In this document: piece by piece, positions 20,373 through 20,456 of the stretch
Layout of the letters: the number at the start of each line of letters is the position of its first letter
Position numbering within the stretch: the stretch's first letter is position 1
Virus record (IMG/VR): IMGVR_UViG_2698536657_000004
Location: 1-21,243 of that record
Reading direction: 5' to 3' (one strand)
Length of the DNA: 21,243 nt
Origin: a virus
Taxonomy: Duplodnaviria > Heunggongvirae > Uroviricota > Caudoviricetes
The notes under the pieces: generated by a model
Seen by the model: the letters and a program-made list of their open reading frames with translations, nothing else
Told to the model about the DNA's origin: nothing
The model's database searches: none
Made by a program: the position numbers and the translations under genes

Positions 20373-20456
20373 TAAAAAAAGCCGCCAGTAAAGAAGGAGA
20401 AGGGATGAACTGTGTCCACTGCATAAATACTGGCGGCTGGTAAAACGACCATGATG

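Follow-up and report, generated by a model that had tools for sequence, protein, structure and literature searches.

A probable minus-strand small RNA gene of the Esr41 and PasA/PasC type between the esterase and lysis genes of a lambdoid prophage

The window analyzed here is a stretch of 21,243 nucleotides (nt) of DNA (IMG/VR virus record IMGVR_UViG_2698536657_000004) and is the late region of a lambdoid prophage that resembles the Shiga toxin (Stx) phages and lacks stx genes. Within it, the gene for a NanS-p-type sialate O-acetylesterase is followed by an intergenic stretch and then by the genes for a DUF1378 protein, a DUF826 protein, and a holin. The region has ~82% identity to phage 933W and other Stx phages (blastn in distant mode, query with flanks), and a prophage of Escherichia coli SCU-171 is 98% identical to it. 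A megablast search of phage records with a 191-nt query found no match.

The intergenic stretch holds an inverted repeat just past the esterase stop codon (TGA, 20370-20372). This repeat is probably the terminator hairpin of an unannotated small RNA (sRNA) gene on the minus strand, convergent with the esterase gene. Two kinds of known sRNA serve as the model. Esr41 (EcOnc14) is an Hfq-binding sRNA of the island SpLE1 of enterohemorrhagic E. coli (EHEC) O157 Sakai. PasA and PasC are sRNAs of enteropathogenic E. coli (EPEC) E2348/69, with EcOnc51 and EcOnc52 as their EHEC homologues. The assignment draws on the observed architecture, conservation, position, and orientation of the element and on its observed covariance-model similarity to Esr41 and the 933W-type alleles.

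The inverted repeat and its strand

An earlier note on this DNA described a 10-bp inverted repeat around a 39-nt loop with a strong Shine-Dalgarno (SD) sequence and a Cys-rich micro-open reading frame (micro-ORF), and offered a regulatory stem-loop, a leader peptide, or chance as explanations. The left arm, GCCGCCAGTA, lies at 20381-20390 as given there. The right arm, TACTGGCGGC, is present but occupies 20428-20437 rather than 20430-20439, and the loop is 37 nt. An additional A20380-T20438 pair lengthens the stem to a perfect 11 bp. The SD sequence AGAAGGAG at 20392-20399 and the 12-codon ORF, from its ATG to its TAA, are found as described (Table 1).

Taken alone, the repeat rises only weakly above chance. 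The expected number of perfect inverted repeats of at least 11 bp with a loop of at most 40 nt is 0.13 per Markov-shuffled window, and chance is not excluded on this ground because ~12% of the shuffled windows contain one. For repeats of at least 10 bp, three are observed in the window against 0.58 expected. The other two are TCTGCAAAAA-19-TTTTTGCAGA at 5286-5324 and CAACTTCCACC-3-GGTGGAAGTTG at 6858-6882.

Read on the minus strand, the sequence runs from a U-rich stretch, GGUCGUUUUACC, through the 11-bp GC-rich stem (seven G-C pairs) to a U7 tract that ends 1 nt from the esterase stop codon. This order has the form of an intrinsic terminator with a U-rich stretch ahead of it, and the GC-rich stem passes directly into the U-tract on this strand. 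The U-tract belongs to the minus strand only, because the A-run, as read on the plus strand, occurs only ahead of the stem. In 30 variants from related loci, the plus strand carries no T-run after the stem, and the window has TGGTAAAACGACC at that place. A U-rich stretch before the stem together with a 3' U-tail is the usual Hfq-binding arrangement. At the position of the U-rich stretch, PasC has CGUUUUA, EcOnc52 has CCUUUUA, and PasA has CCUUUUG. Within the loop, positions 20404 to 20391 of the minus strand read CCCUUCUCCUUCUU, a CU-rich, anti-SD-like sequence that is the complement of the strong SD described earlier. The predicted 97-nt RNA folds at -26.4 kcal/mol (z -3.1). The regulatory stem-loop proposed in the earlier note was loosely right, although the evidence points to an RNA hairpin of the opposite strand with U7 after its stem.

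A promoter-like site lies on the same strand ~95 nt upstream of the terminator, with TTGACA as the -35 (20505 to 20500), a 17-nt spacer, and TAGAAA as the -10 (20482 to 20477). In all short-loop alleles of the locus, described below, TTGAC(A/T) and TA(A/G)AAA are conserved at a spacing of 17-18 nt. A start set 35 nt past the first base of the -35 coincides with the mapped 5' ends of PasA (85 nt, CUGCC...) and PasC (78 nt), and the same geometry lands on position 1 of the Rfam Esr41 model in Sakai SpLE1. Applied to the window, it places the 5' end at 20470, one base from the start of the covariance-model match reported below.

Table 1. Features of the window at and around the inverted repeat
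Feature	Position	Strand	Basis or remark
tRNA-Met/Arg/Arg	16324-16573		
STnc100	17996-18208	+	Rfam scan
NanS-p-type sialate O-acetylesterase gene, 651 aa	18417..20372	+	Pfam DUF1737 + SASA + DUF6645; RefSeq annotation of homologous loci
Predicted small RNA, ~97 nt, 5' end ~20470, 3' end in U-tract 20380-20374	20374..20470	-	Covariance model R2, fold, promoter geometry
U7 tract (A7 on + strand), directly after esterase stop	20374..20380	-	A5-A8 adjoins stem in 30/30 variants
Putative terminator stem, 3' arm UACUGGCGGCU (left arm of the earlier note)	20380..20390	-	Perfect 11-bp inverted repeat
Putative terminator loop, 37 nt	20391..20427	-	Sequence; length variable among alleles
Micro-ORF MNCVHCINTGGW, 12 codons	20405..20443	+	Not conserved, no Pfam match; judged accidental, outside functional element
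Putative terminator stem, 5' arm AGCCGCCAGUA (right arm of the earlier note, coordinates corrected)	20428..20438	-	
U-rich stretch GGUCGUUUUACC, just 5' of terminator stem	20439..20450	-	Read from sequence
Promoter-like site, -35 TTGACA, 17-nt spacer, -10 TAGAAA	20477..20505	-	
DUF1378 protein gene	20524..20718	+	Pfam
DUF826 gene	20744-21016	after DUF1378	Pfam
Class II, P21-type holin gene	21094 onward	after DUF826	Pfam

The hairpin could also act in the plus-strand messenger RNA. There, it might shield the esterase mRNA from 3'-5' exonucleases or serve as an RNase III site, and processing at such a site would uncouple expression of the esterase from that of the lysis genes in the Q-antiterminated late transcript. 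The repeat does lie exactly between two cistrons of the late operon, and the plus-strand RNA hairpin is at least as stable as its counterpart (-24.1 kcal/mol, z = -4.7 versus shuffles; the plus strand is the stabler in 15 of 22 variants). This comparison of energies is uninformative, because it prefers the plus strand even for PasA, which is validated as a minus-strand RNA. Neither the invariant A-run 5' of the stem nor the conserved -35 at a fixed distance on the opposite strand is explained by a plus-strand function, and no plus-strand 3' feature is conserved. Homologous hairpins form the mapped 3' ends of minus-strand sRNAs. Moreover, the U.G wobbles in the alleles L007/L009 and L053 and the G.U wobble in Esr41 would be A.C mismatches on the plus strand; some outer pairs, such as those of L056, point the other way. 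A role in the plus-strand transcript is thus considered unlikely.

Conservation of the stem but not of the micro-ORF

Related sequences were collected upstream of the DUF1378 gene from 59 loci, without selection for any repeat, and comprise 30 distinct variants. All are from E. coli prophages, and a scan of genome contigs across species for the DUF1378 protein found no relative. None of the listed E. coli matches has an annotated feature in the intergenic stretch. All 30 variants have a run of A5-8 directly followed by a stem of the form (G)(G)CCGCCAG ... CTGGCGG, and the A-run stands beside the stem even in variants with a different upstream coding end. Loops are either 36-38 nt long (the window type) or 11-15 nt long and of unrelated sequence (933W and others), while the allele L054 has a CU-rich loop of 25-27 nt. 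The long-loop allele occurs in 69 of 5426 complete E. coli genomes, at 90 places; E. coli SCU-171 and 2014C-3097 are among its carriers. In Sakai prophage Sp5, IS629 disrupts the 3' end of nanS-p (L089/L163, NC_002695.2 1270503-1271812), and the 933W-type sRNA-like element and the DUF1378 gene are intact downstream of it.

The inner pairs of the stem change together. The window has GCCGCCAGTA / TACTGGCGGC, most long-loop relatives have GCCGCCAGCA / TGCTGGCGGC, and 933W has CCGCCAGCG / CGCTGGCGG. Among 17 aligned alleles, the seven core pairs (CCGCCAG/CUGGCGG) are invariant, and two flanking pairs vary on both sides, as C-G / U-A / U.G and as G-C / A-U. The covariation score is 0.063, compared with 0.043 in shuffles, and is reached by 15 of 500 shuffles. 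The repeat is judged not to be a chance occurrence because it is conserved in relatives. In every relative examined, the stem and the adjoining A-run are kept and the loop is replaced wholesale, contrary to the chance reading of the earlier note.

Conservation in related prophages, which the earlier note had proposed as a check, holds for the stem and fails for the micro-ORF. A translated leader or micro-peptide would start from the SD sequence AGAAGGAG and the 12-codon ORF, and would either yield a functional peptide or regulate the lysis genes through coupling to the hairpin. The SD sequence is good, 5 nt from the ATG, the loop is open, and the ORF is intact in most long-loop variants. The ORF is missing, however, from all short-loop alleles of the locus, including 933W. 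Among 16 distinct long-loop variants, the changes are TGT>TTT (C3F), TGC>TAC (C6Y), ATA>ATG (I7M), ACT>GCT (T9A), and one synonymous change; T9A is a compensatory change of the stem. Near-identical long-loop variants thus replace both Cys residues, a 1-nt insertion shifts the frame in L019/L116, and TAA>GAA abolishes the stop codon in L047. An in-frame GTG at 20369 would lengthen the ORF to 24 amino acids, but variation of the A-run from A5 to A8 breaks the frame of a longer GTG/ATG ORF that starts at the esterase stop.

The surrounding structure and the encoded sequence also speak against a leader peptide. The fold of 20370-20485 consists of independent hairpins and offers no alternative-pairing attenuator, and the second of these hairpins is not conserved. 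The SD sequence of DUF1378 (about 20510-20517) is 70 nt away, unpaired, and outside the hairpins. No Pfam family matches the micro-ORF. There is no sign in these variants of selection on a micro-ORF peptide, and the leader-peptide reading is very improbable. The plus-strand SD sequence and micro-ORF would instead be the mirror image of the sRNA loop, with no function of their own.

Three further candidates were considered and rejected. A -1 frameshift signal made of A7 and the hairpin is incompatible with an A-run that lies after the esterase stop, 9 nt after it in some alleles, and varies in length from A5 to A8. The spacing of the arms varies from 11 to 37 nt, which disagrees with a palindrome bound by a dimeric protein. 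The plus-strand hairpin ACACCG-N7-CGGTGT+T5 (20457-20480), tried as a terminator, does not keep an intact stem in close relatives, and part of it coincides with the predicted start of the minus-strand RNA.

Likeness to Esr41, PasA, and PasC

Esr41 is a validated Hfq- and RNase E-associated sRNA that represses chuA, cirA, and bfr (PMC5286369). It is built like the window element, with a TTGACA promoter, a short 5' hairpin, a single-stranded body, a stem of the form CGCC(G/A)GC...GCUGGCG, and U7-AUCA. The stem CCGCC(A/G)G / C(U)GGCGG followed by U7-AUCA, which marks Esr41-like elements, is found in the window, and the two also have in common ACCA as the 4 nt preceding the stem and the tail UUUUUUUAUCA. 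Esr41 of Sakai SpLE1 aligns with the short-loop alleles via UUCUCCAU, the terminator, and the tail UUUUUUUAUCA, and UUCUCCAU, a single-stranded segment ahead of the terminator, is invariant in Esr41 and seven allele types and in 13 short-loop variants. The 933W allele gives a full-length minus-strand match to the Rfam Esr41 family (RF02676) of 28.1 bits (E 0.0011 in a 221-nt search), with the gathering score of the family at 102 bits. Unlike Esr41, the window allele has neither the UUCUCCAU(G)GG segment nor the second hairpin, and its terminator loop is 37 nt compared with ~8-11 nt. A related sequence, UUCUCCUU, sits inside the window loop. For Esr41 proper, no esterase gene is annotated in the 900-bp stretch of SpLE1 that was examined.

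A covariance model (R2) was built from Esr41 and seven short-loop alleles, with no window-type sequence included. It matches the window at 20375-20469 on the minus strand, over model positions 1-85, with 20.8 bits and an E-value of 0.0046; E-values from R2 are approximate, and the stem and U-tract contribute much of the score. The alignment has a 16-nt deletion at the place of UUCUCCAU and a 32-nt insertion in the loop. Against 523 kb of mostly unrelated viral contigs (1.05 Mb searched), scores of at least 20 bits came only from the window element and three further long-loop alleles; the best unrelated match scored 12.2 bits. The window element therefore appears, from these alignments, to be a divergent member of the Esr41-like group. 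The allele L054 (IMGVR_UViG_2703718819_000008, 2857-2954 on the minus strand) reaches 29.6 bits with R2. Here the Esr41-type UUCUCCAU seed is retained alongside an expanded CU-rich terminator loop, CCUCCCGUUCUCCUCU, so that L054 looks like an intermediate form. The known targets of Esr41, namely chuA, cirA, bfr, and fliC/LEE (PMC5286369), cannot be assumed for the window allele.

These results also bear on the possibility that the repeat has no function; it could be a palindrome that arose by chance, or a decaying remnant carried along with the mosaic junction of the esterase and lysis modules. The frequency of such repeats in shuffled windows, the rarity of the long-loop allele among complete genomes, and the loss of the family's conserved seed all fit this view. 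Yet alleles with unrelated loops and bodies keep the stem, the U-tract, and the -35, compensatory changes occur, and the covariance-model match is well separated from background. Lack of function is quite improbable on this evidence.

PasA and PasC are Hfq-dependent, Northern-validated sRNAs that lie in a '> < >' arrangement between an esterase gene and the next gene (PMC8550237). On the minus strand of NC_011601, PasA is mapped from 743499 to 743415, with a minor end at 743264, and PasC from 1290909 to 1290832 (PMC8550237, Table S6). In EHEC, EcOnc51 and EcOnc52 are Hfq peaks from crosslinking and analysis of cDNA (CRAC), the latter at Sakai 1181998-1182075 (minus strand) directly after the esterase gene ECs_1088 (PMC4104026, Table S2). 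The window element has the same slot and orientation as PasA and PasC, immediately 3' of and convergent with a SASA-family esterase gene in a lambdoid late region near holin and lysozyme genes. Also in common are a terminator that abuts the esterase stop (A7 on the plus strand and a GCCAG... stem), a CGUUUUA-type U-rich stretch before the stem, and the geometry from the -35 to the 5' end. The 3' end of PasC, for example, is GCCAGCG-N14-CGCUGGC-U7 directly against the esterase stop (TAATAA-A7-GCCAGCG on the plus strand), and the terminator scan tool calls this homologous hairpin on the minus strand. The stems themselves differ, with GCCAGCG or GCCAGCAC in the PasA/PasC family and GCCGCCAGUA in the window, and the PasA/PasC prophages have the holin directly next, without DUF1378 and DUF826. 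Model R2 matches the PasA/PasC family weakly (E 0.6-2.8). The window element thus seems to be a positional and architectural relative of PasA and PasC rather than a sequence-level one.

The wider layout is also alike. PasD2 belongs to the PasD family, a relative of STnc100, and lies ~2,170 bp from PasA with the esterase gene between them (bioRxiv 10.64898/2026.05.13.724894; Fig. S6 for the layout). In the window, the end of STnc100 at 18208 and the start of the element at 20374 are ~2.17 kb apart. Downstream of the esterase gene in E2348/69 PP2 (L085, 2270-2309 and 2416-2500) and in Sakai Sp12 (L088), two promoter-to-terminator sRNA modules stand in tandem, an EcOnc52-like one first and then PasA. 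The tandem order accounts for the minor 236-nt species of PasA, whose end is at the terminator of the first module.

A simpler minus-strand alternative is a terminator only, which would insulate the esterase gene from stray leftward transcription and leave a short RNA with no regulatory role. The stem and U7 architecture and its conservation fit this equally well. The -10 is poor, the body from promoter to terminator is exchanged from one allele to another, and the Sp5 copy has no listed Hfq peak (PMC4104026). Against it, a conserved TTGACA -35 at fixed geometry accompanies the terminator even where DUF1378 is absent (PasA, PasC, EcOnc52, Esr41), and no nearby leftward gene needs termination. 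The short-loop alleles retain the invariant UUCUCCAU block in the body, and the sRNAs known from this slot (PasA and PasC, PMC8550237; Esr41, PMC5286369) are abundant, depend on Hfq, and have many targets. An insulator is therefore an improbable explanation.

The preferred reading, a minus-strand sRNA gene, has a number of results set against it. Some concern family membership. The Rfam Esr41 model has no match at E<=10 in window positions 20200-20700 or 20355-20520 (166 nt), and an Rfam gathering scan and three E-value scans give no family at the element. The window allele is without the invariant UUCUCCAU seed, having a 16-nt gap at its place. Blastn with PasA, PasC, and EcOnc52 finds at the element only a 10-nt U-tract match (E 1.1), whereas the family is defined by a query coverage of >75%. 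A second covariance model (R1), built from five terminator modules of the Pas family (PasA/PasC/EcOnc52), gives no match in the window at E<=10 and reaches E 0.73 at 933W. Others concern transcription and its end. A consensus promoter scan of 20000-21243 calls nothing, nor does it call the corresponding PasC site, and the -10 hexamer TAGAAA is without the canonical final T. The 5' end of PasA is held to be a processing product, which makes the promoter inference insecure (bioRxiv 10.64898/2026.05.13.724894). At 37 nt, the loop is far outside the typical range of about 3-8 nt and longer than the 8-19 nt of validated relatives; the scan tool cannot call this hairpin as a terminator because of this length, and the efficiency of termination at such a hairpin is uncertain. 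Hairpin energies do not favor the minus strand. The support from covariation is real but modest, as the seven core pairs never vary. At the 933W-type copy in Sakai Sp5 (1272086-1272201), no Hfq peak is listed by Tree et al. (PMC4104026).

If the sRNA gene is real, an RNA of ~97 nt (20470 to 20374) would be transcribed from TTGACA-17-TAGAAA, convergent with the esterase gene and with the DUF1378-DUF826-holin cassette, and would terminate at the stem and U7 on the minus strand. Like Esr41, PasA, and PasC, it would accumulate in lysogens as an Hfq-bound, trans-acting sRNA. Hfq would bind through the U-rich stretch and the U-tail, and the RNA would act by base pairing. The pairing surface is probably the single-stranded 5' body, the CU-rich CCCUUCUCCUUCUU of the loop, or both, and CCCUUCUCCUUCUU could pair with the SD regions of target mRNAs. 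A cis effect in lytic growth is also possible, because the RNA is an exact complement of the late transcript in the stretch that separates the esterase cistron from the DUF1378 cistron.

Short RNAs antisense to phage genes are known from other loci. The lambda OOP RNA is short and convergent with a phage gene, has an intrinsic terminator near the 3' end of that gene, and pairs perfectly with the opposing mRNA. It is encoded in the early region (cII/O) and acts in cis via RNase III. The window element differs in belonging to the late region and has no sequence relation to OOP. The anti-sRNAs AgvB and AsxR (EcOnc01-03) combine a conserved part next to the terminator with a variable part that can be swapped, and occur as convergent pairs at the moron site (PMC4104026). 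Like the RNA predicted in the window, they are short, Hfq-bound, prophage-encoded, and antisense to the late operon. Their locus is upstream of the esterase gene, however, their sequence is different, the terminator is GCCCGA...UCGGGC, and the length is 51-60 nt.

A proposed shared slot and the surrounding prophage

That prophage-encoded sRNAs of the Hfq type are convergent with nanS-p is already known. A broader proposal, which is tentative and held with less than even confidence, is that the esterase-lysis junction of Stx-type prophages is one hypervariable sRNA cassette slot. On this view, PasA, PasC, EcOnc51/52, Esr41, and the 933W-type RNA would all count as alleles of a single system in which promoter and terminator are kept and the body is swapped. 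The kept frame would be TTGACA at a fixed geometry and a GCCAG-type stem with U7 abutting the esterase stop. Loci at which PasA and PasC seem to be 'lost' would carry Esr41-like genes, and the long-loop allele would have been re-targeted, having lost the UUCUCCAU seed and displaying a CU-rich anti-SD stretch in the 37-nt loop.

Rfam matches to Esr41 near PasD have been noted before, yet a loss of PasA/PasC was inferred (bioRxiv 10.64898/2026.05.13.724894). It appears not to have been stated that Esr41-like and PasA/PasC genes, which were described as separate families, share the slot and the promoter and terminator frame. Given this sharing, prophages with PasD only are probably not empty at the slot, which also appears unstated, and the inference that many of them lost the partner sRNA would change. 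The long-loop allele without the UUCUCCAU seed and with a CU-rich stretch in a 37-nt terminator loop likewise appears not to have been described. Neither a full-text literature search for the hairpin sequences nor one on Z1466/Z1467 and sRNA returned a relevant paper.

In EPEC and EHEC, the prophage sRNAs at this slot (PasA/PasC and Esr41) reprogram iron uptake and motility of the host and the expression of virulence genes. If the element is what it seems, the window would add a regulatory RNA gene, so far unannotated, to an intergenic region left blank by annotation pipelines and without an Rfam match. It would also be a cautionary case, in which a strong SD and a micro-ORF within a hairpin mirror the CU-rich loop of an sRNA. 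The practical weight is modest, as this kind of element is already known and the RNA of this allele is a prediction from sequence.

Elsewhere in the prophage, the tRNA-Met/Arg/Arg genes and STnc100 (16324-18416) fill the place that the stx genes have in Stx phages, and no stx genes are found between the tRNAs and the esterase gene of the window. An anti-sRNA of the AsxR/AgvB/EcOnc03 family lies at 18212-18265 on the minus strand, convergent with STnc100. Its sequence is CGAUUAUAAAAAUGUAUAUCUCAUGCUCUUGCCCGAACCCACUCGGGCU8; it matches the conserved 3' region of EcOnc03 (blastn E 5e-14), has its own variable 5' part, and is not listed by the Rfam gathering scan. The isrK and C4 antisense RNA pair occurs twice in tandem, at 7679-7867 and 8338-8526 (plus strand, ~660 bp apart), which suggests a duplicated anti-Q or immunity-type module.

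Two more hairpins were observed near the lysis genes. In many loci, a second recurrent minus-strand hairpin of the GCCAG type with a T-run, GCCAGCTCCAGCTCTCTGGCTTTTTT, lies ~2-2.5 kb downstream of DUF1378, outside the window (L021 ~5327, L006 ~4921, L095 ~3496, L129 ~3189), and may represent a further convergent terminator, or an sRNA, toward the end of the lysis cassette. In the window, a terminator-like plus-strand hairpin, GGCCAUCAG...CUGCUGGCC followed by U5, separates the DUF826 stop from the holin start at 21026-21057 (-24 kcal/mol, z -3.9). An analogous plus-strand hairpin and T-run precede the holin in E2348/69 (L085 2634-2663, L086 743-769).

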